Below are positions 1 to 40,913 of a stretch of DNA of 64,000 nucleotides, one piece after another; position 1 is the stretch's first letter; every line of letters begins with the position of its first letter. The position numbers and the translations under genes were made by a program. The stretch lies in the NCBI GenBank assembly GCA_900548115.1, contig URJL01000001.1, positions 17,818-81,817 on the forward strand, given 5' to 3'. Source of the DNA: an uncultured Eubacteriales bacterium. Its GTDB lineage: Bacteria > Bacillota > Clostridia > Oscillospirales > CAG-382. Under the pieces are notes generated by a model. The model did not search any database. It saw nothing but the letters and a program-made list of their open reading frames with translations, and was not told the origin of the DNA.

Positions 1-597
1 ACGAAAACCGAGCTTGAGATCGCCGAAAAGATAAACGCGCTGAAAGTGCCCGCGGTTTTGGTCATCAACAAAGCCGACGATTACAAAAAGACCAAAATTC
101 TGACCACCATCGAGAACTTCAAAGATCTTTGCGATTTCAAATCGATCATCCCCATCTCGGCGCTCGAAAACGACGGCGTGGACATCGTGCTGTCCGAGCT
201 TTCACCGTTTTTGAAGAACGAGCCGTGGTATTTTGCCCCCGATATGCTCACCGATCAGCCCGTGCGTCAAATCGCCGCCGAGGTCATCCGCGAAAAAGTC
301 CTTCGCCTTCTGGACGATGAGATCCCGCACGGCGTCGCCGTCGTGATCGAGGATTTCGACGAGCAGAAAAATCTGATTAAGATCCGCGCCGAGCTTTATT
401 GCGAAAAAGAAGCGCACAAAAAGATCATCATCGGCAAAAACGGCGAAACCCTGAAAAAGATCGGAACGTATGCCCGCGAGGATCTCGAAGCCTTCTTCGA
501 AAAGAAGATCTACCTCGATCTTTGGGTCAAGGTAAAGGAAAACTGGCGCGACAGCATAATGAATCTCAACCGTCTCGGCTTCCGCGAGGATCGGTAA
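1..597 (+). CDS. era: GTPase Era, C-terminal part (gene begins upstream of the window)
   Basis: Frame 1 is open from nt 1. G4 motif NKAD (VINKAD), then a KH-like C-terminus (IIIGKNGETLKKIG). recO follows, as in the conserved era-recO arrangement. Confidence 0.9.
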   Translation, partial: TKTELEIAEKINALKVPAVLVINKADDYKKTKILTTIENFKDLCDFKSIIPISALENDGVDIVLSELSPFLKNEPWYFAPDMLTDQPVRQIAAEVIREKVLRLLDDEIPHGVAVVIEDFDEQKNLIKIRAELYCEKEAHKKIIIGKNGETLKKIGTYAREDLEAFFEKKIYLDLWVKVKENWRDSIMNLNRLGFREDR

Positions 598-603
598 AGC
601 GCT

Positions 604-1410
604 ATGGAGCTTACCGTTTCGGGCATCGTTCTGCGCGACACGCTGTACGGAGAGAACGACAAGATTCTGACTTTTCTGACGGGCGAGCTCGGAAAGATCT
701 CGGTCTACGCGCGGGGCGTCAAGAGCATCAACAGCAAAAACTCCCCCGCCGTTCAGCTTTTGTGCTATTCCTCTTTCGAGCTTCACGAAAAAAACGGGCG
801 GTATCTTTTGACGGGCGCGGAGGCGCTGGACAGCCATTACGCCATCCGAAGCGACCTTGACCGCTTCGCCCTCGCCTGCTATTTTGCCGAGGTCGCCGAC
901 ACCGTCTGCACCGAAAACAGCGACGAGAGCGAAATGCTGCGCCTTTTGCTCAACTGTCTTTATGCCGCAGAGCATGGTATTTCGCCCCTTTTGAAGATCA
1001 AAGCGGCGTTTGAGATGCAATGCATGATTCTTTCGGGCTTTATGCCCGATCTTGAGGAATGCGCCGAATGCGGAAAGCCCGCCGTCGATTCGACCGACAA
1101 ATTCGGGCGGTATCTGTTTTCTTATTCCGACGGCGCGTTTTTGTGTCCCGCCTGCCTTGCGCAGCGTGCGCGGAAGGATGCGATCCCGCTTCGTCCCGAA
1201 ACGGTCGAGACCCTGCGCGGGATGCTGCGCTATCGGCAAAATCAATGTCTTCGTTTTTCGGTCTGTCCCGAAACCGCGCACGAGCTGTACGGCGTGTGCG
1301 AAGCGTATCTTTCCCGCCAGACGGGAAAGCATTACAAAACGGCGGACTTTTTCCACAGCACGTACGACCCCTCCGCCGAACAAAAGAAAGGCGTAAAGCA
1401 AAACCCATGA
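604..1410 (+). CDS. recO: DNA repair protein RecO
   Basis: 268 aa. N-terminal OB-fold-like sequence (VLRDTLYGENDKILTFLTGELGKISVYARG) and a C-terminal Zn motif CAECG...CPAC. Sits directly after era. Confidence 0.9.
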   Translation: MELTVSGIVLRDTLYGENDKILTFLTGELGKISVYARGVKSINSKNSPAVQLLCYSSFELHEKNGRYLLTGAEALDSHYAIRSDLDRFALACYFAEVADTVCTENSDESEMLRLLLNCLYAAEHGISPLLKIKAAFEMQCMILSGFMPDLEECAECGKPAVDSTDKFGRYLFSYSDGAFLCPACLAQRARKDAIPLRPETVETLRGMLRYRQNQCLRFSVCPETAHELYGVCEAYLSRQTGKHYKTADFFHSTYDPSAEQKKGVKQNP

Positions 1411-3863: not shown

Positions 3864-3955
3864 GCGCGAAAAAATCGGTTTTCGGCAAAAAAATGCCTTT
3901 TCGGGCGGCTTTTTTGCAACTTGCTTGCCGTTGCCGACTTCTTTTTAAAAGGTTC

Positions 3956-3984
3956 TTACCAAAACGCTTTCGGTTTGCTATAAT
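3956..3984 (+). promoter_or_regulatory. Sigma-70-type promoter for the isomerase/kinase pair (-35 TTACCA, 17 nt spacer, -10 TATAAT preceded by TGC)
   Basis: Hand-aligned hexamers at 3956-3961 and 3979-3984. A 6-bp GC hairpin (CCCCGC..GCGGGG, about 4003-4021) lies between it and the RBS. Confidence 0.5.
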
Positions 3985-4036
3985 GTCTCCATACTAAAAA
4001 AGTCCCCGCGGAAAATGCGGGGCGGGAGTGTGCTTT

Positions 4037-4816
4037 ATGGAACAGAAAATGAAACTCGGACTTCAGCTTTATACCCTGCGCAATTTCACCAAAACGCCGG
4101 AGGATTTTCTCTCGACAATGGAAAAGGTCGCCAAGATCGGCTACCGCTATGTTCAGGTATCGGGCGTAGGTCCCGACGTAAACGCCGCGGTCATTCGCAA
4201 GGCGAAGGAAAACACGGGTCTTGAGGTGGTCATTACCCATACCCCGTTTGACAAGATCCAAAACGAGACCGAAAAGGTGATCGAGGATCACGCCTCCTTC
4301 GGCTGTAAGATCATCGGTCTCGGCATGGCGCCGCACGAATATGTCGACTCTGCCGACGGCTACCGTCGTTTTGCCGATGTCATTGCCCCGGCGGTCGAAA
4401 AGATCAAAGCCGCCGGCATGGTCTTCAGCTATCATAACCATTACCATGAATTTGCCAAGAAAAACGGAAAGCATTTCGTGGAATACTTTATCGAAAACAC
4501 CGACCGCGAAGCGGTCAAGCTCACAGCGGACGTTTACTGGCTCCACTACGCCGGTCTTGACGAATGCGCGTGGCTTTCCGAGCACAAGGACCGCATTTCG
4601 TGTACCCATTTCAAAGACATGGGCGTACATGAGCAGAAGCAGTGCATGATCGAAGTCATGGAGGGAAATCTTCCGTACCCGAAGATCCTTGCCACCTGCC
4701 GCGACGCGGGACTGCTGTATCATTTCGTCGAGCTGGACGAAACACGGATCGACCCCTTTGAGGCGATCAAAATCAGTTATCGAAATCTCAAAAATACGGG
4801 ATTTTTTGAAAAATAA
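4037..4816 (+). CDS. Sugar phosphate isomerase/epimerase (xylose-isomerase-like TIM barrel family)
   Basis: About 259 aa. The N-terminus KLGLQLYTLR is typical of AP-endonuclease-2/xylose-isomerase-like TIM barrels. A GGGAG RBS lies 8 nt before the ATG at 4037. Confidence 0.75.
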   Translation: MEQKMKLGLQLYTLRNFTKTPEDFLSTMEKVAKIGYRYVQVSGVGPDVNAAVIRKAKENTGLEVVITHTPFDKIQNETEKVIEDHASFGCKIIGLGMAPHEYVDSADGYRRFADVIAPAVEKIKAAGMVFSYHNHYHEFAKKNGKHFVEYFIENTDREAVKLTADVYWLHYAGLDECAWLSEHKDRISCTHFKDMGVHEQKQCMIEVMEGNLPYPKILATCRDAGLLYHFVELDETRIDPFEAIKISYRNLKNTGFFEK

Positions 4817-4839
4817 TCATCATCACGGAGGAAAAAATC

Positions 4840-6321
4840 GTGGCAACTTTGAAAATGCTCGCCATCGACCTCGGCGCTTCCAGCGGCCGCGGCATGGTCG
4901 GTAAATTTGACGGACAGAAAATCACTCTTGAGGAAGTACACCGTTTCCCGAACGGACCGGTCAACTTAAACGGAAGTCTTTATTGGGACATTCTGCGCAC
5001 CTTCGGCGAGATCAAAAGCGCGCTTCACAACTGCGCTCTTTCCGACAACCGCGACATCGCGTCGATGGGTATCGACACGTGGGGCGTCGACTACGGGCTT
5101 TTGGACAAAAGCGGAAAGCTTTTGGAAAACCCTTACTGCTACCGCGACGAGCGCACAACAAAGGGAATCATGGAGGAACTTTTCCGCGTTATCCCCAAGG
5201 AGGAGCTTTACCGCATTACCGGAACGCAGTTCTTGAATTTCAACACGATTTATCAGCTCTATACCCTGGTGAAAGAGCGTCCCGAAGCGCTGTCGAACGC
5301 AAGCGATATGCTCTTTATCCCCGACCTTTTGAAATATTTCCTCACCGGTGTAAAGCAGACCGAGTACACCATCGCCTCGACCTCGCAGATGCTTTCCGCC
5401 GCCGAGCGCAGCTGGGCATATGACGTCACCGACAAGCTCGGAATCCCCCGCAGACTTCTCGGTGAGATCGTCGCGCCCGGAAGCATTTGCGGCAAGCTTC
5501 TCCCCGCCGTTCGCGAGGAGATCGGCGGAATCGACCCGAAGATCATCAACGTCGCCTCGCACGACACGGCGGCTGCGGTTGTCGCCGTTCCGTCGCAGAA
5601 GGACGACTTTATCTACATCTCGAGCGGAACATGGTCGCTGATGGGCAAGGAGCTTTCCGAACCCTGCACGACCGAAAAAGCCTTCGGCTACGACATTACC
5701 AACGAGGGCGGCGCAGAGCGCAAGATTCGTTTCTTAAAGAACATAATGGGACTTTGGATCGAGCAGGAATCCCGCCGTCAGTGGCAGCGTCAGGGCGAGG
5801 ACGTTTCCTTTAACGAGCTTTCGGACGCCGCCGTTGCCTCCGAGCCGCTCAAGTGCCTGATCAACCCCGACGATCTTTCTTTCCAGACCCCCGGCAATAT
5901 GCCCCTCCGTATTCAGGAATACTGCGAGAAGACTGGACAATATGTTCCCCGGACCAAGGGCGAGATCGTCCGCTGCATCTTCGACAGCCTTGCCATGTGC
6001 TATCGCCGCACGGTGGAAATGATGGACGACGTTACGGGCAAAAAGACCCCGTTTATCAACATCGTCGGCGGCGGAACCAAGGAAGAGCCGCTTTGCCGTC
6101 TCACCGCCGACGCCTGCGGACGTCCGGTCTATACCGGTCCCGTTGAGGCGACCGCGCTCGGCAACATCGCCGTTCAGGCGATCGCGCTCGGCGAGCTTCG
6201 CGACGTAAAGGAAGCGCGCAGCGTCATTGCCGATTCGTTTGAGATCAAGTGCTTCGAGCCGCACAACACCGAAATGTGGGATGCCGGCTACGAAAAATTC
6301 TTAAAGCTTTTGAATAAGTAA
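4840..6321 (+). CDS. rhaB: Rhamnulokinase-like FGGY carbohydrate kinase
   Basis: N-terminus LAIDLGASSGRGMVGKF...LEEVHRFPNG closely parallels E. coli RhaB (AVDLGASSGRVMLA...LREIHRFNNG). FGGY C-terminal block IVGGGTKEEPLCRLTADACGRPV. GTG start with a GGAGG RBS. Confidence 0.75.
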   Translation: MATLKMLAIDLGASSGRGMVGKFDGQKITLEEVHRFPNGPVNLNGSLYWDILRTFGEIKSALHNCALSDNRDIASMGIDTWGVDYGLLDKSGKLLENPYCYRDERTTKGIMEELFRVIPKEELYRITGTQFLNFNTIYQLYTLVKERPEALSNASDMLFIPDLLKYFLTGVKQTEYTIASTSQMLSAAERSWAYDVTDKLGIPRRLLGEIVAPGSICGKLLPAVREEIGGIDPKIINVASHDTAAAVVAVPSQKDDFIYISSGTWSLMGKELSEPCTTEKAFGYDITNEGGAERKIRFLKNIMGLWIEQESRRQWQRQGEDVSFNELSDAAVASEPLKCLINPDDLSFQTPGNMPLRIQEYCEKTGQYVPRTKGEIVRCIFDSLAMCYRRTVEMMDDVTGKKTPFINIVGGGTKEEPLCRLTADACGRPVYTGPVEATALGNIAVQAIALGELRDVKEARSVIADSFEIKCFEPHNTEMWDAGYEKFLKLLNK

Positions 6322-6341
6322 TCGAAAGGATCGGGATCTTT

Positions 6342-7805
6342 ATGACCGAACGCAATCTTTCTCTGTTGTGCGATTTTTATGAGCTTACCATGGCGAACGG
6401 CTATTTTGTCCGCGGCATGGGCGATAAAATCGCGTATTTCGACGTGTTTTTCCGCTCGATTCCCGACGGCGGCGGTTATGCGATCGCGGCGGGGCTGGAG
6501 CAGATCATCGAATATGTAAAAGATCTTCATTTTTCCGACGGGGACATTGCCTTTTTGCGGGAAAAGAAGCTGTTTTCGGAGGATTTTCTGCGCTATCTTC
6601 GGGGTTTTCGTTTCACGGGCGACATTTTTGCCGTTCCCGAGGGAACGCCCGTCTTTCCGAACGAGCCGCTTTTGACGGTGCGCGCTCCCTCCGCACAGGC
6701 ACAGCTTCTTGAGACCTATCTTCTTCTCGCGCTGAATCATCAGTCGCTCATCGCGACCAAAGCCAACCGCATCGTGCGGGCGGCGCAGGGACGGACGGTT
6801 TTGGAATTCGGCTCGCGCCGCGCTCAAGGAGCGGACGCCGCCGTGATCGGTGCGCGCGCCGCATACATCGGCGGCTGCGGCGGAACGGCATGCACGCTTA
6901 CCGACCGTCTTTACGGCGTCCCGGCGGGCGGAACCATCGCCCACTCGTGGGTGCAGATGTTTGACTCGGAATACGAAGCGTTTGCCGCCTACTGCGAGAT
7001 TTATCCGACCAACGTAACACTGCTTGTCGACACCTACAACACCCTGAAAAGCGGTGTTCCGAACGCGATTCGGGCATTTAAAGAAATTTTGATCCCAAAG
7101 GGAATCGATCACTTCGCCATCCGTCTCGATTCGGGCGATATTTCGTATCTTTCCAAAAAAGCGCGCGAAATGCTGGATGAGGCGGGCTTGCCGCAGTGTA
7201 AGATCGTCGCCTCCAACGCGCTCGACGAATATCTCATCCGCGACCTGATGATGCAGGGCGCAAAGGTCGATCTTTTCGGCGTGGGCGAACGGCTGATCAC
7301 CGCCAAGAGCGATCCCGTGTTCGGCTGTGTATACAAGCTTTGCGCCGTTGAGGACGAAAGCGGAAACATTATTCCGAAGATCAAAATCAGCGAAAACACG
7401 GCGAAGATCACCAACCCGCACTACAAAAAGCTGTATCGCTATTACGACAAAGAAAGCGGCAAGGCGCTTGCCGACGAGCTTTGCATTTGGAACGAGACGG
7501 TGGACGAAAACGCCCCGCGCACCATTTTTGACCCGAACGCGGTCTGGAAGACCAAAACGCTTGAAAACTTCACGGCGCGCGAGCTTCTCGTTCCGATCTT
7601 CAAAAACGGAGAATGCGTTTACGAAAGTCCGTCGCTCCCCGAGATACGCGCTTATTGCGCCGAGCAGATCGAGACGCTTTGGGATGAAGTCAAGCGGTTT
7701 GAAAATCCGCACACCTATTACGTCGACCTTTCCGAAGCGCTGTGGAACGAAAAAACCGGACTTTTGGCAAAGGCGCGCGGCTGGTGGTATGGAAAGAATC
7801 GATAA
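6342..7805 (+). CDS. pncB: Nicotinate phosphoribosyltransferase
   Basis: 487 aa. N-terminus LLCDFYELTMANGYF and the block GTIAHSWVQ are characteristic of the NAPRTase family. Confidence 0.9.
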   Translation: MTERNLSLLCDFYELTMANGYFVRGMGDKIAYFDVFFRSIPDGGGYAIAAGLEQIIEYVKDLHFSDGDIAFLREKKLFSEDFLRYLRGFRFTGDIFAVPEGTPVFPNEPLLTVRAPSAQAQLLETYLLLALNHQSLIATKANRIVRAAQGRTVLEFGSRRAQGADAAVIGARAAYIGGCGGTACTLTDRLYGVPAGGTIAHSWVQMFDSEYEAFAAYCEIYPTNVTLLVDTYNTLKSGVPNAIRAFKEILIPKGIDHFAIRLDSGDISYLSKKAREMLDEAGLPQCKIVASNALDEYLIRDLMMQGAKVDLFGVGERLITAKSDPVFGCVYKLCAVEDESGNIIPKIKISENTAKITNPHYKKLYRYYDKESGKALADELCIWNETVDENAPRTIFDPNAVWKTKTLENFTARELLVPIFKNGECVYESPSLPEIRAYCAEQIETLWDEVKRFENPHTYYVDLSEALWNEKTGLLAKARGWWYGKNR

Positions 7806-7821
7806 GAAAAGAGGAATTTTT

Positions 7822-8304
7822 ATGATAAAAGCAATTATTGAAATGGAAAACGGAAAAACCATGACCCTCGAGCTTTATCCCGACAAGGCTCCGATCACGG
7901 TGAAAAACTTTGTCGACCTTGCCGAAAAAGGCTTTTATGACGGGCTGATCTTTCATCGCGTTATCGAAGGCTTTATGATCCAGGGCGGCGACCCCGACGG
8001 CACGGGCTGCGGCGGTCCCGGTTACTCGATCAAGGGCGAATTTTCCTCGAACGGCGTGAAAAACGACTTAAAGCATACGCGCGGCGTCATCTCGATGGCG
8101 CGCTCCATGGCGCCCGATTCCGCCGGTTCGCAGTTCTTCATCATGCATGAGGACGCGCCGCATCTCGACGGTCAGTACGCCGCCTTCGGGAAGCTGATCG
8201 ACGGCTTCGAAACGCTGGACGAAATCGCCGAGACCCCCACGGGCCGTGCCGACCGTCCGAAAACCGAACAGAAAATGAAGTCCGTCACGATCGTAAAGGA
8301 ATGA
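7822..8304 (+). CDS. ppiB: Peptidyl-prolyl cis-trans isomerase, cyclophilin type
   Basis: Cyclophilin motifs FHRVIEGFMIQGGDP and SMARS...GSQFFI. The ATG at 7822 is preceded by AAGAGGA. The upstream part of the tracked ORF (7327-) overlaps pncB out of frame. Confidence 0.9.
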   Translation: MIKAIIEMENGKTMTLELYPDKAPITVKNFVDLAEKGFYDGLIFHRVIEGFMIQGGDPDGTGCGGPGYSIKGEFSSNGVKNDLKHTRGVISMARSMAPDSAGSQFFIMHEDAPHLDGQYAAFGKLIDGFETLDEIAETPTGRADRPKTEQKMKSVTIVKE

Positions 8305-24991: not shown

Positions 24992-25660
24992 ATGGCTACC
25001 ATACCGCATTATAACGGAACCCTGCGCAGTCACCTGATCAACGTTCCCGAATGCATTCATTCCTGCTCCGGGATCCGCATTTTCGGACGGAGAATCCGTT
25101 CGATCGTGTTTTCGACCGACGTCGCCATCATTAAAAACATCAATTCCGACGCCATCATCGCCGTCTATCCCTTCACACCGCAGCCCTCCATATCGCAGGC
25201 GATCATCAGCGTTTCCGACGCGCCCGTGTTCGTCGGCGTGGGCGGCGGTCTTACGGCGGGCGACCGTTCGGTGCGCCTTGCCGTCGAAGCCGAAAACCAG
25301 GGGGCGTTCGGCGTTGTGGTCAACGCGCCGATCGACCCGAAGGTCATTTCGAACATCAAAGAATGCGTCGACATTCCCGTCATTGCGACGATCGTGTCGG
25401 AAAAGCAGGATATCGAAGAGCGGCTGCGTGCGGGTGCGGACATTCTGAATGTCTCGGCGGCGTCCCGCACGCCCGAAATCGTCGCGCACATTCGCGCGCT
25501 GTATCCGAAAATTCCGATTATCGCGACCGGCGGACCGACCGACGAATCGATCCTAAAGACCATTCACGCGGGCGCCAATTCCATCACCTACACCCCGCCC
25601 ACCAACGGCGAGCTGTTTGCCATCTCCATGAATAAGTATCGCGGTACCTACGTTGAATAA
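24992..25660 (+). CDS. Conserved hypothetical protein, probable (beta/alpha)8 barrel with phosphate-binding-like glycine motifs
   Basis: 222 aa, good AAAGGAG RBS. Alternating beta-strand/helix pattern with VGVGGG and IIATGGP motifs, reminiscent of NanE/ThiE-type phosphate-binding barrels. Function not recognised. Confidence 0.55.
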   Translation: MATIPHYNGTLRSHLINVPECIHSCSGIRIFGRRIRSIVFSTDVAIIKNINSDAIIAVYPFTPQPSISQAIISVSDAPVFVGVGGGLTAGDRSVRLAVEAENQGAFGVVVNAPIDPKVISNIKECVDIPVIATIVSEKQDIEERLRAGADILNVSAASRTPEIVAHIRALYPKIPIIATGGPTDESILKTIHAGANSITYTPPTNGELFAISMNKYRGTYVE

Positions 25661-28020: not shown

Positions 28021-28049
28021 TTGACAAACGGGAAAAGACATGCTATAAT
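28021..28049 (+). promoter_or_regulatory. Perfect-consensus sigma-70 promoter of rplJL (-35 TTGACA, 17 nt spacer, -10 TATAAT)
   Basis: TTGACAAACGGGAAAAGACATGCTATAAT. Confidence 0.75.
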
Positions 28050-28233
28050 TATGTCCTGACCTAAGAAAGCAGGTCGCACGCTTTTTGTGCGCTAACGGCT
28101 CGCCCGCCTGCCGAGGAAAGACATATTTCACTGAAAACCCACCTTCGGGCTTGATATTGTGTTTCTTGTTCTTTTCCGGTTACGCTTTTTGCGGTCCCAA
28201 AAGAACTTTTTTTATTGGAGGTGAAACAGTACC
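28050..28233 (+). ncRNA. Putative ribosomal protein L10 leader (autoregulatory 5' UTR)
   Basis: About 180 nt of structured leader lies between the consensus promoter and the rplJ RBS, with several short hairpins (for example GACCT..AGGTC and CGCAC..GTGCG). L10(L12)4 leaders are established in Firmicutes. Not validated against a covariance model. Confidence 0.45.
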
Positions 28234-29278: not shown

Positions 29279-29314
29279 AAAAGGCAGATCCGTTTTTCGG
29301 ATCTGCCTTTTTGT
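29279..29314. terminator. Bidirectional rho-independent terminator shared by rplL (+) and the GRE activase gene (-)
   Basis: 12-bp stem AAGGCAGATCCG / CGGATCTGCCTT with a TTTTT loop and T-runs on both strands. Confidence 0.8.
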
Positions 29315-29344: not shown

Positions 29345-30193
29345 TCAGGAAAACACGGCGCGAAGCGCCTTCATTTTTTCCTCGGGTATCTCGGGAAATT
29401 GCGGTATAGGAAGCCCGAGCGCCGCATATTTGGGTTCTCCCAGCCGATGATACGGCAAAAGCTCGATCTTTTCGGGGCGATATGGCGACAAAAACTCGCG
29501 GATCGCGCGCATATCCTCTTCGGTGTCGTTCACCCCGCCGATAACGGGTATCCGAATCCAAACCGAAGCGCCGCACGAAAAAAGCGATTCGAGATTTTTC
29601 AGGATCCTCTCATTGGAAACGCCCGTATACGCGATATGCTTTTCCCGATCAAGTGTTTTGATATCATAGAGAAACAAGTCGGTATACGGCAAAACAAGTT
29701 TAAACGCTTCCCACGGTACATTTCCCGCCGTATCGATTGCCGTGTGAATTCCGTTCTTCGCAAGACTCGCCGAAAACGGCGCTATCTCTTTTGCCCAAAG
29801 CATACACTCGCCGCCCGAAAAAGTCACGCCGCCGCCCGATGCGGCATAATAGTCCGCGTCCCGTAAAAGAAGCGAAAGCAGTTCCGATTCCGTATAATCT
29901 TTCCCGCAAACCGAAAGAGCACCCGACGGACAAACCGTTTCGCATTGTCCGCAAAAATCGCACTTCTCGGGCTGCAGCTTTCCGCACCGTACCGCACCGT
30001 TCGGGCAAACCGACGTGCATTTTCCGCAATGCATACAGCGGTCTTTATAATAGAAAATATGCCTTTTTCCGTCGCGGCTTTCGGGATTGTGACACCACGC
30101 GCAAGAGAGATTACAACCGCGAAAAAACACGGTCGTGCGAATTCCCGGACCGTCCTCAAAGGAATTTCGCGCAATATCGAAAATAGGAAACAT
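29345..30193 (-). CDS. Glycyl-radical enzyme activating protein (radical SAM, with two auxiliary ferredoxin-like clusters)
   Basis: N-terminal GPGIRTTVFFRGCNLSCAWCHNPES (CX3CX2C), then CMHCGKCTSVCP and CDFCGQCETVCP. The start lies 15 nt downstream of the GRE stop. Confidence 0.9.
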   Translation of the reverse strand: MFPIFDIARNSFEDGPGIRTTVFFRGCNLSCAWCHNPESRDGKRHIFYYKDRCMHCGKCTSVCPNGAVRCGKLQPEKCDFCGQCETVCPSGALSVCGKDYTESELLSLLLRDADYYAASGGGVTFSGGECMLWAKEIAPFSASLAKNGIHTAIDTAGNVPWEAFKLVLPYTDLFLYDIKTLDREKHIAYTGVSNERILKNLESLFSCGASVWIRIPVIGGVNDTEEDMRAIREFLSPYRPEKIELLPYHRLGEPKYAALGLPIPQFPEIPEEKMKALRAVFS

Positions 30194-30208
30194 AACACTT
30201 CCCCCGCT

Positions 30209-32254
30209 TCAGACTCGCTCGACCGTGCGCCGAATAATATCGTTTTGCAAATCGGTATCAAAACGGGTAAAATATCCCGAATATCCCGTCACACGCACGA
30301 CCAGATTCCGATATTCGTCCGGATTCTTTTGGGCACGCAAAAGCTCCTCTTGCGAAAGATAATTGATCTGCAGCTGCATGCCGCCCTTTTTCAGGAAAGT
30401 ATGGTACATTGCGGCAAGCTTTTCGAGCTTTTCCTCCGATCGTGTAAAGCTTTTGTCGATCTTGACGTTTGCGACCACGCAGCCGCAGAGTTTTCGATAA
30501 TCAAGCTTTGCAATCGAATTGAGCAGCGCCGACAGCCCGCTTTTATCCTTGCCGTCGCTTTGCGCGATCCCCATCGTAAAGGGGTCGCCGTCCCTTCGCC
30601 CGTCGGGAGTCGCTTTGGTCATTCTTCCGAAAATCAGATTCGGATGCGTCGCGCCGACAAACGAGCCGATAATGTAAATATCATCCTTGTTCCGCGGAAG
30701 CTCGGAACGAATCGCATACAGTTCGTCCACGGCCCTTTCGACGATCGAATCAACATAATCGTCATCGTTTCCGAAGAAATGTCCCGTGCGCAGAATTTGT
30801 GTGCGGATGTCCTCATACCCTTTGTAATTTTTTCGAAGCATGTCGCAAAGGGATGCCATCGTAAGCTTTTTTTCGTCGAATACAAACTGCTTTATGACCG
30901 AAAGAGAATCGGCAACGTTGGAAAGGCTGTTGAAGGAGAATGTAATACCGTGATATTTCGCGCCTCCGTCGGAAAACGGCTTTGCCCTTTCGATGCAAGT
31001 GCGACAAAGCGCCGAGGTCAAAACATTGATATCCCCCGCCGTGGCAGCGACATAACGCGGATATTCCGACGCAATCGTTTCCATATCCCGTTTCATATAT
31101 CCGTAAAGCCGCGTCATGACCTCATCAAAGCTCTGCGTTTTTTCGATCTGCGGGTCCTCATACAAAAGCGATTCCAACGAGTGCAGAAGATTGACGTGGG
31201 CAAGCGAAAGATCCGCTCCGCAGGGAAGATTCCATTCGTTGCACCCGACGACCGTATAATCGACGGCATCTTTGGGGTCGATTCCGACATCGGCCATACC
31301 CGGAAGGCGCGGCTCGTCGTTAACAAAAACGATCCATTGACACTTAGCATTCAGTTCGGTGATAAACCGCATGGTCTCGGGAGAGGTGTATTTCGTATAA
31401 CGAAACGAAGCTTGCGGGCGGAAAGTGGGAAGCTCGGCGATACATTCAAGAACCAAACGCGAAAGCTCGTTAAAGCCGTCAGTCCCGTCGGGCAAATATC
31501 CGCCGACGACCAGATGATTGTGTCCGCTTATCGGAAGTGCTTTGTTGTCGGTCTGTGTTTCGTATACGCGGACGAACAGCTCCTGAAGCAAATCCTTTGC
31601 TTCATCACGGTCGATCTTTCCGCTTTCGATATCGTTTTTGTAATACGGATATAAATACCGATCGATTCGTCCGAGGCTGTCGGCGCAAAACTGGAACAAA
31701 AACCAAACCGCCTGAACCGCCTCATAAAAATCCCCGGCGGGCCGCATCGGCACTTTTTGAAGAATCGAACGAAGGCGCGGGGATGAGCAGCACTCCGCGC
31801 AGCGAAGAGAAAACTCCTCAAGAGAATCCAAAACTATAACCATGGCTTCGCAGAATTCGTCTTTTTGGGGTCTCGAGCAGATTCTTTCCCTATATCCGTA
31901 AAGCCCTTCTCTCAAAAGCGAATCAAAATCCAAAACAACGTGCGTCCAACCCCAATAAAACACGGGGTCGGGTCTGTTCCAGCAATGCTTCGACCAGTAT
32001 TTTCCGAAGCTTTCGCAGCCAGCGCGACGATAAAAATCGGAAGGATAATCGCATCCGGAAAAGCGAATGCGCCCGAAAAGCTTCTCACCGGGATACTCTT
32101 TTATCGGAACTTTGCGAAAATAACGCCGCAGTCCCTCCGCGATCGCCTTCGGTGAGCTCAGTTCGCTTTCATTTTCCACAGAGATCGAACAGCGCGGAAA
32201 TTTGTCCTCGCCGTACATCGCTTCCTTTGCCATATTCCGTATACGTTCCGTCAT
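30209..32254 (-). CDS. Glycyl radical enzyme of the PFL2/dehydratase-like clade, 681 aa, unknown substrate
   Basis: C-terminal glycyl-radical fingerprint VVRVTGYSGYF. Cys loop VVGCNEW (C-x-E as in eliminase/dehydratase-type GREs, not the PFL CC pair). ATG at 32254 after GAGGAAAG. The tracked ORF start at 32332 has no RBS. Confidence 0.85.
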   Translation of the reverse strand: MTERIRNMAKEAMYGEDKFPRCSISVENESELSSPKAIAEGLRRYFRKVPIKEYPGEKLFGRIRFSGCDYPSDFYRRAGCESFGKYWSKHCWNRPDPVFYWGWTHVVLDFDSLLREGLYGYRERICSRPQKDEFCEAMVIVLDSLEEFSLRCAECCSSPRLRSILQKVPMRPAGDFYEAVQAVWFLFQFCADSLGRIDRYLYPYYKNDIESGKIDRDEAKDLLQELFVRVYETQTDNKALPISGHNHLVVGGYLPDGTDGFNELSRLVLECIAELPTFRPQASFRYTKYTSPETMRFITELNAKCQWIVFVNDEPRLPGMADVGIDPKDAVDYTVVGCNEWNLPCGADLSLAHVNLLHSLESLLYEDPQIEKTQSFDEVMTRLYGYMKRDMETIASEYPRYVAATAGDINVLTSALCRTCIERAKPFSDGGAKYHGITFSFNSLSNVADSLSVIKQFVFDEKKLTMASLCDMLRKNYKGYEDIRTQILRTGHFFGNDDDYVDSIVERAVDELYAIRSELPRNKDDIYIIGSFVGATHPNLIFGRMTKATPDGRRDGDPFTMGIAQSDGKDKSGLSALLNSIAKLDYRKLCGCVVANVKIDKSFTRSEEKLEKLAAMYHTFLKKGGMQLQINYLSQEELLRAQKNPDEYRNLVVRVTGYSGYFTRFDTDLQNDIIRRTVERV

Positions 32255-32388
32255 AATCTTTCCTCTTTTCGAAGGGTGTTTTTTCCTGCCGAAACCCGTT
32301 CGGCAAGGACTCTTGTACACAGTATACCGCACGTTTTTGAAAAGGAAAATACAGAAAACGGTTATTTATATTTTTTAGTACAAAAATC

Positions 32389-32417
32389 TTGACAAACTTT
32401 TTCGCGTTTGTTATACT
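32389..32417 (+). promoter_or_regulatory. Sigma-70-type promoter of the AraC-family gene (-35 TTGACA, 17 nt spacer, -10 TATACT)
   Basis: TTGACAAACTTTTTCGCGTTTGTTATACT, in the GRE/araC divergent intergenic region. Confidence 0.65.
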
Positions 32418-32448
32418 GTCAAAAAACAGGAAAAGCGAGAACGGCAAA

Positions 32449-33225
32449 ATGAATCCAAAGATACTTGTTACCGACATTGTTTCGGTTTTTACCGTGCAAA
32501 GTAAATTTACTCCGAAAGTGCGCGATTACAGCGGAAAAGTGTATCACAACGAGCTGATTATAAAGCTTGAAGGGCAAACCGAGACCCGTTTTGACAAAAA
32601 GGTATTTCTCGATAAAAAAGGGTCGGTGCGTTTTCTCCCCGCAAAAAACACCCCCGTGGAATACACCTGCCGTACTTTGGAGGAAGGATATTGTATAGAT
32701 ATACAATTTGATACAACCCTTCCGTTTGAAAACACGGCATTTCTCGTTTTCCCACGCCGATACGACGATCTTTCCCGTCTTTTTCGCAAAGCGGAAAAAA
32801 CATGGAAAGAGAAGCGAAACGGTTATTTTCACACAACGCTTGCCTGTCTTTACGAAATTCTCGGCATTTTACAAAGCGAAGAAGAGTACGTTCCGAACGA
32901 CCTGTTCGAAAAGATCCGCCCCGGGGTCGATTATCTTTCCGAGCATTTCTACGAAGATGTGGATATCGACCGTCTCGGCACTCTTTGCGGCATCAGTCAC
33001 GCTTATTTCAAGCGCATCTTCAAACGCCGTTTCGGAATGCCGCCCAAGGCATACCTTTTGTCGCTCCGAATGAAATACGCCTGCGAGCTTTTGAAAACCG
33101 AACGCTGCACGGTGCGGGAAATTGCCGAAAAGGTCGGATATCCGAATGTTTATTATTTCAGCACGAGTTTTCGAAAGATCGTCGGGCTTTCCCCGAGCGA
33201 TTATCGAAAAAGCACCAATAAATAG
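32449..33225 (+). CDS. AraC-family transcriptional regulator (cupin-like sensor plus HTH_18)
   Basis: C-terminal double HTH (GISHAYFKRIFKRRFGMPPKAYL...VREIAEKVGYPNVYYFSTSFRKIVGLSPSDYR). Divergent from the GRE operon. Confidence 0.85.
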   Translation: MNPKILVTDIVSVFTVQSKFTPKVRDYSGKVYHNELIIKLEGQTETRFDKKVFLDKKGSVRFLPAKNTPVEYTCRTLEEGYCIDIQFDTTLPFENTAFLVFPRRYDDLSRLFRKAEKTWKEKRNGYFHTTLACLYEILGILQSEEEYVPNDLFEKIRPGVDYLSEHFYEDVDIDRLGTLCGISHAYFKRIFKRRFGMPPKAYLLSLRMKYACELLKTERCTVREIAEKVGYPNVYYFSTSFRKIVGLSPSDYRKSTNK

Positions 33226-35157: not shown

Positions 35158-38100
35158 TTACGCGTCTTTTGCAAGAGCGTTCAGGCGTTCGATCTGGGCG
35201 TCGGTAAAGGTCGCACTTTCATCTGCGAGAGCCGCCTTTGCCACTGCGGCGATCGAAGTTGCATACCGGTCACCGTAGAAGGTGTACGAAACGCCGTTTG
35301 CGGTATTGTACGTGATATACGGAACGACTGCATAGCGGCGCGTGTAATTCGCTTCCTCGATACCCGTTACGCAAACCGTATAGCGGAACGCATTTTCATC
35401 CGCAGCAAAAATGTTCTTTGCGGGAACGGTATATGCGTTTTCGGTCTCCTTGGTGAGCGCTTCGTTCTCGGCAAGATAGGACTCGGGTAGGATAACAAAT
35501 CCCGTTCCCTCGTTCGTATCGTCGCTTTCGGTCTTCTGCGTAAACGCAGCGCCCGAAGCACCGAGAGCCTTAAACAGATCCATGGTGAATTCGTTTACAA
35601 AGCGGAGTCCCTCTTCGCCCGTAAGACGAACCTGTGCGCCGAGCACGTTAAACTGACTTTCGGTACGGATCGGGAGGAAGTGTGCGGTGAGAACATCTCC
35701 CTTGCGGAGTGCGTCGCCGTTCTTAACAGCCTTCTCACCCTTAAACCAACCGATAAAGAGCGCACCGTCTCTCGAAAGAATCGAAGATTCGGTAAAGGCT
35801 GCGATCGAGTCTTTTCCGACCGTAATGCTGCCTGCCGCTTCGTCGATATACGAGCCGTTTCCGTCCTCCGTTATAACAACCGTGCTTCCGTAGGTTACGG
35901 TATGTGTTCCGGGCGTAAGCGTATAAAGGTCGTTATCGGTAATTGCAATCCTATCTCCGTCTATAAACAAAGCGCCGCTTTGTGAAACGATCTTGAAGGT
36001 TCCGACCGTGTCGGTATCGGTTACCGTACCTCCGACGGCGCTGTTGACGATATAACGCTTGCCGTTGTCGGTTTCCGAAGGAAGTGCCGGGAAGGTAAGA
36101 CCGTTGTTGGCAATAAATTGCGTATCGGCATACGAAACCGCGCGGGGACCCGTGGTGATCGAATTGATTTTGCCGCCGCTGTACAGCACGGTTACGGTTC
36201 CGGTGAATCTTACTCCGCCGGTCACAGATCCATACGAGTCAGGACCGAGAATGAGCGAGTCAAGCGTACCGCCGTTTATCGTAACCTTGGCGCCGTCGCA
36301 GGTGCGGGTAGTGCCCTGTGAGTTATAGAACGGACCGATATAGGCAATATTAACGCTGCCGCTGTCCATACGGAAATTTTGGAACGACGTATTCCCGTTT
36401 TGACGACCCATATGGAGCTTCGGTCTGTGGGTCGTTCCGCTATACGGAAGGTTCTTGACGTTCTTGCCGAAGGTTACGGGGTTCTGGTCATTTACAATGA
36501 AGTTGTTGTTTGCCCGAATCTTAAAATTGATATTCTCGAAAATTGCGGGGCCCTTGGTGCAGAACTGCGCCACCCAACCGAGCGAACCGTTTTCGGTCGA
36601 CGAGAAGGTGATGGTTCCCGTGTGGTTGGCGCCCGTCACGGCATAATCCGAGGCTTGGCTTTCGTTGTAATCGTCGAGGAACATAATCGTAAAGTCTCGA
36701 TCCGCTCCCGCAATGTTGATGGCCTCCTTGATGGTTTTAACGGGGGCGTCCGCCGTAAGACCGAGTCCCGAACGTTCCGCCGACTGCTTTACGTAAAGGA
36801 CGGGAACCTCGCTGTTTTCCAGCCATCGCGCCGTAAAGGTGACGGCGGTCTCGCCGAGAAGATAGGTATCGCCGGGAGCATAAACCGTATCGTCTCCCTC
36901 CGTCCTCCAGCCCGCAAAGGTGTAGCCGCTCTTAGCAAAGGGGTTGACGGGAAGCGTGATCGAATTGTTCGCACTTCCGATCGTTTCGACCGTATTGCCG
37001 CTGCCGTCGGCGTAAATCACATCGATCGAATCGTCTGCCCGGAAGACAATCTCCGTCGTTCCGGCATTGAGCGTATAGAATCCTCCTTCGTCGGGAAGAA
37101 GCTTTACGCCGTTTGCATACGGGGCATCGCCCTCCTTATCGGGAGTGAGCGTATAGCTCGTGCAAATACCGTTCTCTCCGCGGACAAGCTCGGCTTTACC
37201 GCCCGAAACGGTCAGAACGACATCCGCAAGGTTGCCGGAAAGATCAAGACCGGTGTCGGAAGCAAGCTCGTGGTTGTTGCTGATGATGATCTTTTTGCCC
37301 GACGTGATCAGCGGCTGATTCTGCGTTATGCCGATCGATCTTCCCGCAAGGCTGCCGCCCGCCGCTTTGATCTCGGCATTATTAAAGAGGAGAACGTAGT
37401 CGCCGTTTACGCGCATTCTGCGCGTGTCGGAGGTAACAAAATTCTGAGACGAGCCGTAAGAGAAGTCGCCCTTAAATTTACCGCCGCTTACGTTGATAAA
37501 CGCGCTGCCGTTCAAAATAGCCGTCGTTGAGGCAGGGAAAACGGAGACGAAGCTTCCGCCGTAGATGTTCAGATAAATGTCGCCGTTTACGGTCTGGATA
37601 CCGCCGTCTGCCGTGCCCTTTCCGTTACGGGAGATGACGCGGATATGATTGAACGAACCTCCGTAGTAGTTATAAATCGTGTCTCCCGTGACGGTGTGCG
37701 TTCTGCCGTATTCGGCAGCCGCACCGCCTTCACCGAACGAGCCGTTATGGAAATCGATCTTGTTCGCTTTTCCGTTATTGCTCTGACCGTAATAGATGGT
37801 CTTTTCGCTCTTGAAGTTTTTACCGAAGGTGAGAACGTTTCCGTTTGTGCGCGTCCAGCTTTCCCATCCGGCGCCCGCCATGGTAAGGCTGTCAAACTCG
37901 GTGTCTCCGCCGTAGATCTCAAGCTTTTGGTTGGTAAGATATGCCGTCGAGTCAAGACCGATGAGCATGATCTTGCCGCGCGCCTCCGACGTATCGGAGA
38001 AGACCTGCGTGCCGGTGAAATAAATCGTACCGCCGACGGGAAAAAGAGCCGTTATGGCATCGGCAATTGCTTCGTACGCTTCATACGTCTTTCCGCCGAC

Positions 38101-40071
38101 CGTTACCGAACCCGTTTCGGAAACGTAAGCGATCGCGCTTCCGTCGTTCTGAAGGGTTCTTTCACCCGAGGTGTTATACAGAATCGGCATTTCCTGATGG
38201 AAGCTTATGTTGTTCAGGTAGGCAACCTGTCCTGCGGGAACGGTATTTCCCTTGGCATCTGTGCCGTAAGGGTAGAAATACACCTGCTTCAGGATCATGC
38301 CGGGATAGGTCTCGGCAAGCCATGCCGCCGTCTCGGTATAGTCAAAATACTGTGTGACCCACTTGTTTGTGACAACGGGAGCGGAGCGTTGTGTATAAAG
38401 GTAGCCCGCATCCTCGCCGCTGCCCGTTATCCAGTTGAGCGCGTCGTTGCCTACGTTGTTTACCTGACAAATACGGAACGCCGCTTGATTTTCGGCGCTT
38501 CCCGCCGTATCCTCATAATAGTAGGTGACGGCAATATACTTTGTACCGGGGAAGGAAATGTTGTAGGCCATACATTCCCACCAGTTAAGACCGATCGTGG
38601 CGGTCGAAGACGTTTTCGGCGTCAAGGCTCTTGCCGAAAGACCGTGAAAGTCTGCCGCCGCGTCAAAGGTTCCCGCGCCGTCCAAGCTGCATCCCGAGGA
38701 AAGATCCGAAGCCTTTACGACCGTCGGGAGATAAATAACCTTTGTGTCGGGAGCCGTCGCGGGATGTACCGTCGAGGGATCGCCGTCCACATAGATGTAG
38801 CGCAGATCGGCGCGAACACCGTCCGCATTCTGATCGAGGACGTATTCGGCACGCCACTCGCGATCTGCAAGACCGTTGATAATGGCGGCGGGAATCGGCA
38901 GACCTGTGGAATAGTTCTTGATAAGCGAGGTTTTGCCGCTGTAGGTGACGCTTTCATCGTCCACGGCGGTGATCGTCCATTTCAGGCTTCCGCTTGCGGG
39001 ATAGCCGAAGTTGTAAAAGCCCGTGCCGCGCCCCTTGAAGGTGTAGGCAAAGGAGGCGTTACGGTTGTTCGAGGTAATCGTGCCGTTGCTCGAAGCCTTA
39101 ACGCTTTCGCCGCTCCTTGCGTTGAGCGTAAAGCCGTTCAGGTCTTTCTGCGTAAAGCCCGCATCCTTAAAGCTGATATAACGTCCGTTTAAGATCAGCT
39201 TTGAAGCGTCGGAATAGGTCGTTTCGGGAAGCACGATGTCGGTGTACGTGCCCGTGCGGACTACTTCGTTACTGAAAAGCTGTTTTTCGAGATAATCGGT
39301 GATGGTCTTGGCATAGATCACATAGCCCGCATCGTTGGGATGGCAGGAGTCGGTGATATATTTCTTCCAGATTGCGTCGTTCGCTGTGAAAGAGGTCTGT
39401 CCCGATTCCTCTGCCATGACATCGACAAGAGCGCGTCCGACGTTGAGCTGCGGAAGGTTGTAATGCTCCGCCAGTCTGCGGTGCGCCTCAAAGCAAGCGC
39501 CGCCCTCGGTGCCGTTCTTCAGATAAGCGTTGGCAAACGAAACGTCGGTCGTGAAGACGGGAATGATCTGGATCTTCGGGTTTACGGCATAAGCCTGACG
39601 GAGGATCGATTCATAATAAATCGCCGCGTCGGTGCCGTTTATGGAGTCGTAACCGTCGTTGATCGAATACTCGATGAAGAGTACGTCGGGAGCGCCTTCG
39701 TCGCAATGACCGTCCCGGTAAAAACGGTAAGCGCCGAAAAAGCTGCCCGTCGCACCGATTCCCGCGTCAATGTTGGTGACGGTCTTGCCGTAGGCGGAAT
39801 CCTCGCCCACCGTTTCGGTGAACCATTTTCCGACCAAAGCGCGCCAGCTGCCTTCATTGGCTTGACTCGCACCGGCGCCCGCCGTGACCGATCCGCCGAG
39901 ATACACGACGCGAAGATCGGTATCGCTCTCGTTGTTCAAGATATACGCAAGATTGGAAAGATCGCTTGCGGGGAGTGCGAACTCCTCGGCACTTGCGGCA
40001 AACGGCACACAGCCGATCGCAAGAAGAACCGAAAGCACAAGCGCAAGCGCGCGCATACTGTGGTGTTTCAT
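35158..40071 (-). CDS. Giant (1637 aa) secreted protein: signal peptide, SGNH/GDSL hydrolase domain, two beta-helix-like modules, Listeria-Bacteroides (Flg_new) repeat
   Basis: Signal peptide MKHHSMRALALVLSVLLAIGCVPFAASA. SGNH blocks YLGGSVTAG, IEYSINDG and DSCHPNDAGY. Duplicated module boundaries LTFGKNFK and VTFGKNVK with GG-rich turns. Flg_new-like SGYTFAGWRTEGDDTVYAPGDTY. ATG at 40071 after GGAAGGGG. Confidence 0.85.
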   Translation of the reverse strand: MKHHSMRALALVLSVLLAIGCVPFAASAEEFALPASDLSNLAYILNNESDTDLRVVYLGGSVTAGAGASQANEGSWRALVGKWFTETVGEDSAYGKTVTNIDAGIGATGSFFGAYRFYRDGHCDEGAPDVLFIEYSINDGYDSINGTDAAIYYESILRQAYAVNPKIQIIPVFTTDVSFANAYLKNGTEGGACFEAHRRLAEHYNLPQLNVGRALVDVMAEESGQTSFTANDAIWKKYITDSCHPNDAGYVIYAKTITDYLEKQLFSNEVVRTGTYTDIVLPETTYSDASKLILNGRYISFKDAGFTQKDLNGFTLNARSGESVKASSNGTITSNNRNASFAYTFKGRGTGFYNFGYPASGSLKWTITAVDDESVTYSGKTSLIKNYSTGLPIPAAIINGLADREWRAEYVLDQNADGVRADLRYIYVDGDPSTVHPATAPDTKVIYLPTVVKASDLSSGCSLDGAGTFDAAADFHGLSARALTPKTSSTATIGLNWWECMAYNISFPGTKYIAVTYYYEDTAGSAENQAAFRICQVNNVGNDALNWITGSGEDAGYLYTQRSAPVVTNKWVTQYFDYTETAAWLAETYPGMILKQVYFYPYGTDAKGNTVPAGQVAYLNNISFHQEMPILYNTSGERTLQNDGSAIAYVSETGSVTVGGKTYEAYEAIADAITALFPVGGTIYFTGTQVFSDTSEARGKIMLIGLDSTAYLTNQKLEIYGGDTEFDSLTMAGAGWESWTRTNGNVLTFGKNFKSEKTIYYGQSNNGKANKIDFHNGSFGEGGAAAEYGRTHTVTGDTIYNYYGGSFNHIRVISRNGKGTADGGIQTVNGDIYLNIYGGSFVSVFPASTTAILNGSAFINVSGGKFKGDFSYGSSQNFVTSDTRRMRVNGDYVLLFNNAEIKAAGGSLAGRSIGITQNQPLITSGKKIIISNNHELASDTGLDLSGNLADVVLTVSGGKAELVRGENGICTSYTLTPDKEGDAPYANGVKLLPDEGGFYTLNAGTTEIVFRADDSIDVIYADGSGNTVETIGSANNSITLPVNPFAKSGYTFAGWRTEGDDTVYAPGDTYLLGETAVTFTARWLENSEVPVLYVKQSAERSGLGLTADAPVKTIKEAINIAGADRDFTIMFLDDYNESQASDYAVTGANHTGTITFSSTENGSLGWVAQFCTKGPAIFENINFKIRANNNFIVNDQNPVTFGKNVKNLPYSGTTHRPKLHMGRQNGNTSFQNFRMDSGSVNIAYIGPFYNSQGTTRTCDGAKVTINGGTLDSLILGPDSYGSVTGGVRFTGTVTVLYSGGKINSITTGPRAVSYADTQFIANNGLTFPALPSETDNGKRYIVNSAVGGTVTDTDTVGTFKIVSQSGALFIDGDRIAITDNDLYTLTPGTHTVTYGSTVVITEDGNGSYIDEAAGSITVGKDSIAAFTESSILSRDGALFIGWFKGEKAVKNGDALRKGDVLTAHFLPIRTESQFNVLGAQVRLTGEEGLRFVNEFTMDLFKALGASGAAFTQKTESDDTNEGTGFVILPESYLAENEALTKETENAYTVPAKNIFAADENAFRYTVCVTGIEEANYTRRYAVVPYITYNTANGVSYTFYGDRYATSIAAVAKAALADESATFTDAQIERLNALAKDA

Positions 40072-40913
40072 GTCTTTTCCCCTTCCAAAAAATAATGTAT
40101 TTATGATAAAACCCCTCAGGGTCTTCATACGGGCAGCCTATAACGGGCGTTTGTTTAAAACATAGCCGCTTGGGCACGGACCTGTCTTTGTCTTTGTTCT
40201 CTTCCGTTTCACCGACTCGCGCAGCCACATGCATTGCTGAAGCTCGGCAAAGATGAGCTTTTTTCGGAACAGCAAGCAAAATGAACAAAAATACGGATGT
40301 TTTCCACCCTATATGTACCATAATACACAAAACCGAACCGAAAGTCAAGAGAAAAAGCCGCACACATCGCCGCGAAGCAACATTTTTCCGATTCGGCGGG
40401 TTTTCATGACAAATCGCGCACCGACGCGGCAAAAATTCGCTCTCTTTTTCGTGCGGTTTTATGTTTTTCAATCGCATTTATTTTTTATTGTATCGCCAAA
40501 GCGAAAAAATGTCCATACAAAATCCTGCGGCATGTGGGCGATTCGAAAGAAAAATGCATATAATCGTCCGGCATTTTGTTAAAAATGCCGACTTTATATC
40601 AGTGTACCCCTTTTCGTGCAAAAAGTCGTTTCGTTTTGTGACAGACGCTTTTCGAATTGTGACCGTTTGGAAGCTCCCGCGCGCACAAAACGAAGACGTT
40701 CGGAATAGTATACATTTATAAATCCGTCCAATTCAGGCAAAATATCGCAAAAATTAAAAAAATTACAAAACCGTTTGAAATATTTTGAAAAATGCGATAT
40801 ACTTATACACGGAATCTTAAAAAAATTAAGGGCTTGCAAAGGTGTATACCTTTACAAACTCTGTTTCTTTTTCTTCGTTCATGCGGTTTGTTCTTCTTTT
40901 CCGCCTTTTTCCG

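Follow-up and report, generated by a model that had tools for sequence, protein, structure and literature searches.

A compact regulator-enzyme-activase module from an uncharacterised, probably eliminase-type clade of glycyl-radical enzymes in gut Clostridia

Glycyl-radical enzymes (GREs) make or use gut compounds that matter to health, among them trimethylamine (TMA), p-cresol, skatole, H2S precursors and hydroxyproline. All characterised 1,2-eliminases and isomerases of this kind keep a Cys-X-Glu (CXE) motif, in which the Glu is hydrogen-bonded to the substrate hydroxyl, and in glycerol dehydratase (GD) His164 is the acid that protonates the leaving OH (PMC13450708). Whole clades of GREs are still without a function (PMC13450708); HypD provides a precedent for predicting one from a dehydratase-like active site together with an adjacent reductase (PMC6219649). 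Here we describe a GRE locus in a 64,000-nucleotide stretch of DNA (the window; positions 17,818 to 81,817 of contig URJL01000001.1) from an uncultured Eubacteriales bacterium. It is a real, intact and conserved module of regulator, GRE and activase, and its enzyme falls, on sequence grounds, in an uncharacterised, compact clade of eliminase type that is marked by a Gly-Cys-Asn-Glu (G-C-N-E) Cys loop. The three-gene unit, with all genes intact, spans window positions 29345-33225 and comprises the following features.

30209-32254, minus strand: GRE of 681 amino acids (aa), "G-C-N-E" clade of the GREs of pyruvate formate-lyase (PFL) 2 type (open reading frame, ribosome-binding site, Pfam, AlphaFold, Foldseek).
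31940-31942, minus strand: codon of His105 (alignment by profile hidden Markov model, HMM).
31235-31246, minus strand: Cys loop G337-C338-N339-E340, which holds the CXE motif with its predicted thiyl-radical Cys and its predicted general base, Glu (translation, alignment with GD).
30278-30295, minus strand: glycyl-radical motif R-V-T-G657-Y-S (translation check, conservation, Pfam).
29345-30193, minus strand: GRE-activating radical S-adenosylmethionine (SAM) enzyme of 282 aa (TIGR02494, motifs, distance from the GRE stop).
32449-33225, plus strand: divergent AraC/XylS-family regulator of 258 aa (HTH_18, HTH_AraC; revised start).
32255-32448, no strand: divergent intergenic control region (promoter scan, Rfam, repeat search).

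The GRE gene begins with an ATG that has AGAGGAAAG, a good ribosome-binding site, just 5' to it. An alternative GTG at 32332, 78 nucleotides (nt) upstream, would yield a protein of 707 aa; in the homologues, without exception, the start is the MxERI equivalent of this ATG. The Pfam domains of the product are PFL-like (1.3e-76) and Gly_radical (2.2e-25). A first-pass annotation, made from the letters without database searches, had described a 681-aa protein ending in the glycyl-radical fingerprint VVRVTGYSGYF and had taken its VVGCNEW loop for the C-x-E of eliminases rather than the Cys-Cys pair of PFL. Both descriptions stand: the translation places Gly657 within RVTGYSGYF and gives C338-N-E340. 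When conservation of the catalytic residues was scored in 88 family sequences, Gly337, Cys338, Asn339 and Gly657 proved invariant and Glu340 nearly so (at least 90%). An aminoacyl-radical residue (Ala, Ser or Thr) is absent, position 657 being Gly here and in all 88 relatives. Cys338, Glu340 and Gly657 align with Cys433, Glu435 and Gly763 of GD, and His105, part of an invariant W-x-H, aligns with GD His164 and with a His of propanediol dehydratase (PD; "GVGH") and of YbiW ("DAH"). An alignment of the active site against characterised GREs had been proposed with the first-pass annotation, and its outcome is that these four residues match their GD counterparts.

An AlphaFold2 model of the GRE, built with the 88-sequence alignment, shows a complete barrel with a mean predicted local distance difference test (pLDDT) of 92.9 and a predicted template modelling (TM) score of 0.92. 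Its best Foldseek matches are GD (1r8w, TM 0.86), PD and HypD, with query-normalised TM scores of 0.85-0.86. The activase gene starts 15 nt after the GRE stop. Its product carries CNLSCAWC (CX3CX2C) at residues 27-34 and two ferredoxin-type CX2CX2CX3CP motifs, CMHCGKCTSVCP at residue 53 and CDFCGQCETVCP at residue 78, and scores 322.7 bits against a cut-off of 174 in the GRE-activase model TIGR02494; the motif positions and this score confirm the earlier claim of a dedicated activase with two extra clusters.

No characterised subfamily is reached by the window GRE, as the first-pass annotation had supposed in leaving the enzyme unassigned. Its identity to every solved GRE is 21-26%, and the equivalog models for HpsG, HypD, CutC, HpfG, IAD, HPAD and PFL all score 4-10 fold under their cut-offs, the best values against cut-off being 260/1000 bits for the HpsG type, 250/1100 for HypD, 233/1050 for CutC and 91/994 for PFL (TIGR01255). 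A profile of the family scores CutC, PD, GD, HypD, HpyG, YbiW and HpsG about equally. Single-linkage clustering (40% identity, 80% coverage) puts the window GRE into a 122-sequence cluster in which 116 members have C-N-E; at 30-35% identity all GREs merge, which is uninformative, and it takes 40% to set the clade apart. One genome per GTDB species was scanned with a sequence pattern, which gave 389 relatives, and the best 80 of the 389 were examined for their source. All 80 lie in metagenome-assembled genomes and are at most 68% identical to the window GRE; nearly all come from gut Clostridia of humans (Hadza, Nepal), ruminants and birds, with one Victivallis in addition. Databases name the relatives only "formate C-acetyltransferase" or "hypothetical protein". 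Our literature searches found no description of the G-C-N-E clade or of its gene association, and no paper linking a GRE to AraC plus a short-chain dehydrogenase/reductase (SDR) or to a partner of the phosphotriesterase (PTE) family. One candidate for the latter link, a paper on metal-dependent bile salt hydrolases (PMC13081902), was discarded; both terms occur there in unrelated contexts only.

Gene neighbourhoods were compared by calling open reading frames (ORFs) in 85 loci, clustering the products and annotating the recurrent clusters; counts below refer to 82 short family genes. A divergent AraC gene lies within two genes upstream in 85% (70/82) and an activase within three genes in 55%; these are the shares of the two partners in the triad of GRE, activase and AraC, whose conservation was to be checked. 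A classical SDR is a neighbour in 43%, an M20 peptidase in 16%, and a PTE-family hydrolase and a beta-lactamase-fold hydrolase in 9% each; BD-FAE, GDSL and PGA_cap proteins occur occasionally. Genes of these clusters are tightly packed or overlapping, in the manner of operons. In the clade at 47% identity or more, a gene resembling M20 dipeptidases of the Sapep/PepV type stands in the operon at about 11 of 18 distinct loci, and its product scores above the cut-off of the Sapep dipeptidase model (229 against 208 bits). The gene order varies within this clade: GRE-M20-activase, GRE-PTE-M20 with overlapping genes (locus L002) and M20-GRE-SDR-PTE (L005). In one abundant lineage of the clade (L085) genes for an ABC solute-binding protein, two permeases, a PGA_cap protein and an M20 peptidase diverge from GRE-activase-SDR, with the AraC gene between. 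Microcompartment shell genes were not found among the recurrent neighbour clusters of the 85 loci. The first-pass statement that there is "no recognisable substrate context" is therefore right for the window alone and wrong for its relatives, which have SDR, hydrolases and, once, an ABC importer. The window locus is a minimal version of the module and should not be read as a sign that the family is without a pathway.

The SDR was considered as the sign of a common product, an idea that is unsupported family-wide: median SDR identity is 38-41% where the GREs are 30-60% identical. Three SDRs of the closest clade are 64-68% identical to one another. Many genomes carry several tandem GRE paralogues, each with its own AraC gene. 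Beside the short GREs stand further uncharacterised GRE clades of 740-770 aa (L002, positions 2643-8074; L006-L008, L011, L012, L045, L047, L057, L059), with RVCGW or RVCGF glycyl motifs, in some cases without a GCxE loop, and with Gly as the radical residue. These often have their own AraC gene, and sometimes two GREs flank one activase, with an SGL lactonase, a GDSL esterase or an EamA transporter encoded nearby. Threonyl- or other aminoacyl-radical enzymes were sought among the neighbours with two GREs per activase and ruled out, all of them carrying Gly. These gut Clostridia contain islands of several unassigned GRE systems. In L088 (positions 1-5760), whose GRE is 58% identical, the module adjoins the fucose genes GH95, FucU, fucose isomerase and FGGY kinase; this link is probably incidental, since only the kinase is constant across three contigs.

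Retention of the Cys/Glu pair and the alignment of His105 with GD His164 make C-O-cleaving 1,2-elimination or isomerisation the most likely chemistry. Between these we lean, with some confidence, to a C-O-cleaving 1,2-eliminase (a dehydratase) that would act on a hydroxylated small molecule as part of a self-regulated radical module; the clade at large, a sizeable one from gut Clostridia, probably consists of enzymes that take a hydroxyl-type group off a small molecule. Genes, motifs, fold, clade membership and neighbourhood statistics are direct results of the analysis; from these conserved residues and established GRE chemistry we infer the radical chemistry, the leaving group, substrate sensing by AraC and the pathway logic along the following lines. 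The AraC protein would bind a small molecule and activate the divergent promoter of the two-gene operon, coupling expression to substrate availability. Using SAM and a [4Fe-4S] cluster, the activase would abstract a hydrogen from Gly657, and the resulting glycyl radical would generate a thiyl radical on Cys338. The thiyl would take the carbinol hydrogen of the hydroxylated substrate while Glu340 deprotonated its hydroxyl, and a ketyl radical would result. The adjacent carbon would then lose its substituent, for which a hydroxyl or an ether oxygen, protonated by His105, is the likeliest candidate, and the alpha-carbonyl radical would regain a hydrogen from Cys338 to leave a ketone or aldehyde. 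In relatives the SDR would reduce this carbonyl product, and the M20 dipeptidase-like, PTE-like and esterase or beta-lactamase-fold hydrolases would free the substrate from its conjugates, be they amides, esters or lactones. Quinate or chlorogenate, hydroxylysine, Pro-Hyp peptides, homoserine lactones and carnitine were entertained as substrates; no result supports any of them and none is claimed.

Several observations weigh against the dehydratase assignment. The residue equivalences come from alignments at 21-26% identity. In the NCBIfam model for the PFL2/glycerol dehydratase subfamily (TIGR01774) the window GRE scores 313.3 bits against a cut-off of 678 and matches profile positions 154-785 only. 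By HMM alignment to GD, the helical region ahead of the first barrel strand falls short by about 59 residues; a search for absent N-terminal elements by structure prediction had been suggested, and the fold is still complete without them. Homologues of the PTE, M20 and SDR partners were not found in the 64-kb window by tblastn with queries from relatives. The N-terminal 150-170 residues of the regulator match no Pfam family and no PDB sequence; in the earlier label "sensor/regulator" the second term stands by virtue of the helix-turn-helix domains, and the first is a supposition about this unmatched part. Finally, the window GRE and its 98% twin read GADLSLAH at residues 342-349 (nt 31208-31231, minus strand), with Ser in the column of GD Asp447, the residue reported to bind the substrate hydroxyl in GD, and with an Asp two residues earlier. 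After the Cys loop, relatives of at least 47% identity read GxxxDL-AH, which places an Asp in that column; at residues 342-349 the other close relatives read G[AKS][RK][ILM]DLAH (closest: GARIDLAH), and more distant clade members have no Asp there. The displaced Asp may reflect a shifted specificity in the window lineage. As a separate observation, this indel-like shift of a predicted active-site Asp coincides with the loss of the hydrolase and SDR partner genes.

A close alternative to the dehydratase, to which we give a minor share of the probability, is an isomerase like YbiW, PflD or HplG, in which Cys, Glu and His would open a cyclic ether or amine beside a hydroxyl to yield an isomeric ketone. 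Isomerases keep the CXE motif, YbiW has its His in the His105 column, and YbiW and PflD are as near to the window GRE as the dehydratases are (TM 0.83-0.85, 22-24% identity); the SDR could equally process the ketone formed. However, an anhydroglycolysis-type route would bring with it genes for a sugar kinase, aldolase or phosphotransferase, which the family does not have beside it, and the top structural matches are GD and PD.

Cleavage of a C-N or C-S bond, as by CutC, IslA or HpsG, appears improbable. The substrate of such a lyase would be a beta-substituted alcohol, possibly an amino alcohol made available by the M20 enzyme, and an amine or sulfite would be split off from it. The CXE motif is common to these lyases as well, CutC is the top PDB sequence match of the family profile (1e-123), marginally ahead of PD and GD, and the M20 and PGA_cap partners suggest nitrogen-containing conjugates. 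Against this, His105 matches the C-O-cleaving GD, PD and YbiW, none of the 85 loci contains sulfite reductase, TMA-handling or microcompartment genes, and the CutC and IslA equivalog models lie 4-5 fold under their cut-offs.

It seems slightly less probable again that the clade performs a reaction class new to GREs; a different mechanism or partner would then lie behind the trimmed N-terminus, the invariant Asn of C-N-E and the next residue, Trp or another. Asn339 does not vary within the clade and has no equivalent in the solved-GRE loops of our alignments (GCVE, GCTE, GCIE), the 122-sequence cluster stands apart at 40% identity, and a recent review reports whole GRE clades that have not been validated. 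The eliminase catalytic set is nonetheless complete and the fold contains no additional domain, for which reasons a known chemistry is the more parsimonious choice.

The short length of the GRE, stressed in the first-pass annotation, is genuine in comparison with characterised enzymes, whose solved chains have 759-897 aa as against 681. It is less unusual among uncharacterised sequences, many of which are compact GREs of 700-760 aa. HMMER, run exhaustively over 1.84 billion representatives at 50% identity, returned 1591 GRE-like sequences at E <= 1e-30, and the lengths of the 135 complete-looking nearest representatives are bimodal, with 60 at 700-760 aa and 38 at 780-820 aa. From this distribution, compact GREs make up a large part of sequence space without assigned function, with 681 aa at the low end of their mode. 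The 90%-identity cluster of the window GRE has 68 members; of the 15 listed, which lie on contigs of up to 456 kb, 14 are 681 aa long and one is 703 aa. In a word-indexed search, clusters of 680-710 aa number more than 120; their identities range from 98% to 35%, and every one covers the whole query. Homologues align end to end from residue 1. Relative to GD several loops are also shorter in the HMM alignment, and in the subclade of the window GRE the helix ahead of the VPxxPA motif is reduced by a further 22 residues or so. The conserved dimer interface of GREs is built from the helices that come before the barrel (Imrich et al. 2026 review, PMC13450708).

That the short length should stem from a truncated or decaying gene, a mis-assembly or a mis-called start is highly improbable: the unit's lower G+C (see below) and the absence of the relatives' partner genes would fit, but the ribosome-binding site, the conserved 681-aa length, the end-to-end alignments, the complete and confident model and the presence of a dedicated activase and regulator rule out truncation or frameshift. 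The two outcomes that the first-pass annotation had named as fatal to its reading, high identity to a characterised subfamily and a disrupted gene, were thus both looked for and neither was found.

The regulator has the dual helix-turn-helix of the AraC family at its C-terminus (HTH_18, 3e-21; HTH_AraC, 3e-20, by Pfam), in agreement with the earlier call of a divergent AraC-type gene. Compared with solved structures, its profile matches only at positions 147-260, to AraC-family DNA-binding domains; a single-sequence AlphaFold model has an N-terminal pLDDT below 50 and is too poor for a structure search. The start needed correction. A TTG at 32389 had been listed as the start of a 278-aa ORF, but this triplet belongs to the -35 hexamer of a sigma-70-like promoter at 32389-32417 on the plus strand (TTGACA-17-TATACT, 11/12 match, with a TG extension), and in a 98%-identical metagenomic locus (L001) the gene is also called from the ATG equivalent to 32449. 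Both points make the ATG at 32449, which gives 258 aa, the most likely start. Operator repeats were sought in the divergent region (32255-32448), with only weak matches of chance quality. A riboswitch or leader RNA before the GRE gene was considered and rejected: Rfam in E-value mode over 27.5-35.5 kb reports only the L10 leader upstream of rplJ and nothing before the GRE, and the hairpin in the 5' untranslated region is no better than those of shuffled sequences (z = -1.3).

The trio is wedged between the rplJ-rplL pair and spoIIP, an arrangement first read from the letters and now seen in the Pfam annotation of the 98%-identical locus. By the same annotation there are no shell or transporter genes within 10 kb of the unit, which, together with the tblastn search of the window, bears out the description of a locus without transporter, shell gene or downstream pathway enzyme. 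One further feature separates the convergent genes.

29279-29311, no strand: G+C-rich, terminator-like hairpin between the rplL and activase genes (14-bp stem, 7 GC pairs, T-run on the plus strand).

The G+C content of the AraC-GRE-activase unit is 48.9%, compared with 54.8% at 20-28 kb and 53.4% at 33.3-43 kb. In two other loci (L088 and L089) a phage-integrase fragment lies 3' of the homologous GRE-M20-activase operon. The low G+C and the integrase fragment hint at horizontal mobility of the module. The L10 leader mentioned above (RF00557) lies at 28042-28221 on the plus strand and scores 41.8 bits, with a gathering score of 44 and E = 0.00029. At 24992-25660 on the plus strand, a 222-aa ORF without a Pfam family on record is kept in the 98%-identical locus. 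On the minus strand, positions 35158-40128 encode a protein of 1656 aa whose N-terminus is signal-peptide-like; in the 98%-identical locus it is annotated with a GDSL-type lipase/esterase domain and with Flg_new repeats. Lying beyond spoIIP it is probably unrelated to the GRE unit, though only 2 kb away.

The clade is widespread among gut Clostridia, both in ruminants and in people who eat a high-fibre diet, with up to 389 loci in species-representative genomes, and its conserved partners (regulator, SDR, hydrolases) offer concrete handles for substrate discovery. The window GRE, from the minimal module and the most compact of its kind, is a convenient construct for expression and structural work, and for asking whether the enzyme can do without the N-terminal dimer region. 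It is conceivable, though we hold it to be rather doubtful, that the G-C-N-E clade serves a new gut-microbial pathway, in which variable hydrolases (M20 dipeptidase-like, PTE-like, esterases) would free a hydroxylated, possibly amino-acid- or peptide-derived compound, the compact GRE would dehydrate or cleave it by radical chemistry and a dedicated SDR would reduce the product. The substrate class, and perhaps the reaction as well, would then be new to GREs, and with its trimmed N-terminus the enzyme would be the smallest PFL-like GRE scaffold that works, its oligomeric state possibly altered. Our understanding of GREs is unchanged unless the chemistry proves new.

Among known systems, GD of C. 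butyricum (1R8W) and PD of R. inulinivorans (5I2G) resemble the window GRE in fold (TM 0.85-0.86, a ten-stranded barrel with Cys and Gly loops), in the Cys and Glu of CXE, in the His at the position of GD His164, in the Asp of the Asp447 column as far as close relatives of the window GRE are concerned, and in an activase with two extra ferredoxin-type clusters. They differ from it in sequence (25% identity) and in length, the window GRE being 105-160 residues shorter; it has Asn instead of Val within CXE, is under AraC control, stays under the TIGR01774 cut-off and has no microcompartment or aldehyde/alcohol dehydrogenase genes. HypD with its pyrroline-5-carboxylate (P5C) reductase, and likewise HpyG/HpzG, offers a parallel of another sort, a GRE eliminase beside a reductase that would take up the unsaturated or carbonyl product, as in the 43% of relatives with an SDR; the M20 dipeptidase-like partners of relatives also hint at an amino-acid-like or peptide-derived substrate. 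HypD is nevertheless only 21-23% identical, the equivalog score is 250 against 1100 bits, the partner here is an SDR and not P5C reductase, and HpyG has Glu in the His105 column.

YbiW/PflD, which act on 1,5-anhydrohexitol-6-phosphate, and HplG share CXE and the fold (TM 0.83-0.85), and YbiW the His; at 22-24% identity, the window GRE is 85-130 residues shorter and has no sugar-phosphate pathway genes nearby. CutC and the sulfonate lyases IslA, IseG and HpsG share the CXE eliminase chemistry and give profile-sequence scores similar to those of GD and PD, but they are 21-26% identical, their equivalog scores fall far under the cut-offs, and the window GRE lacks the microcompartment, TMA and sulfite genes. 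With PflB it shares the superfamily, the Gly loop and the activation mechanism; the adjacent Cys-Cys pair is absent from VVGCNEW and only the C-terminal 190 residues align (E 7e-22). The module is a variant within a known kind of system.

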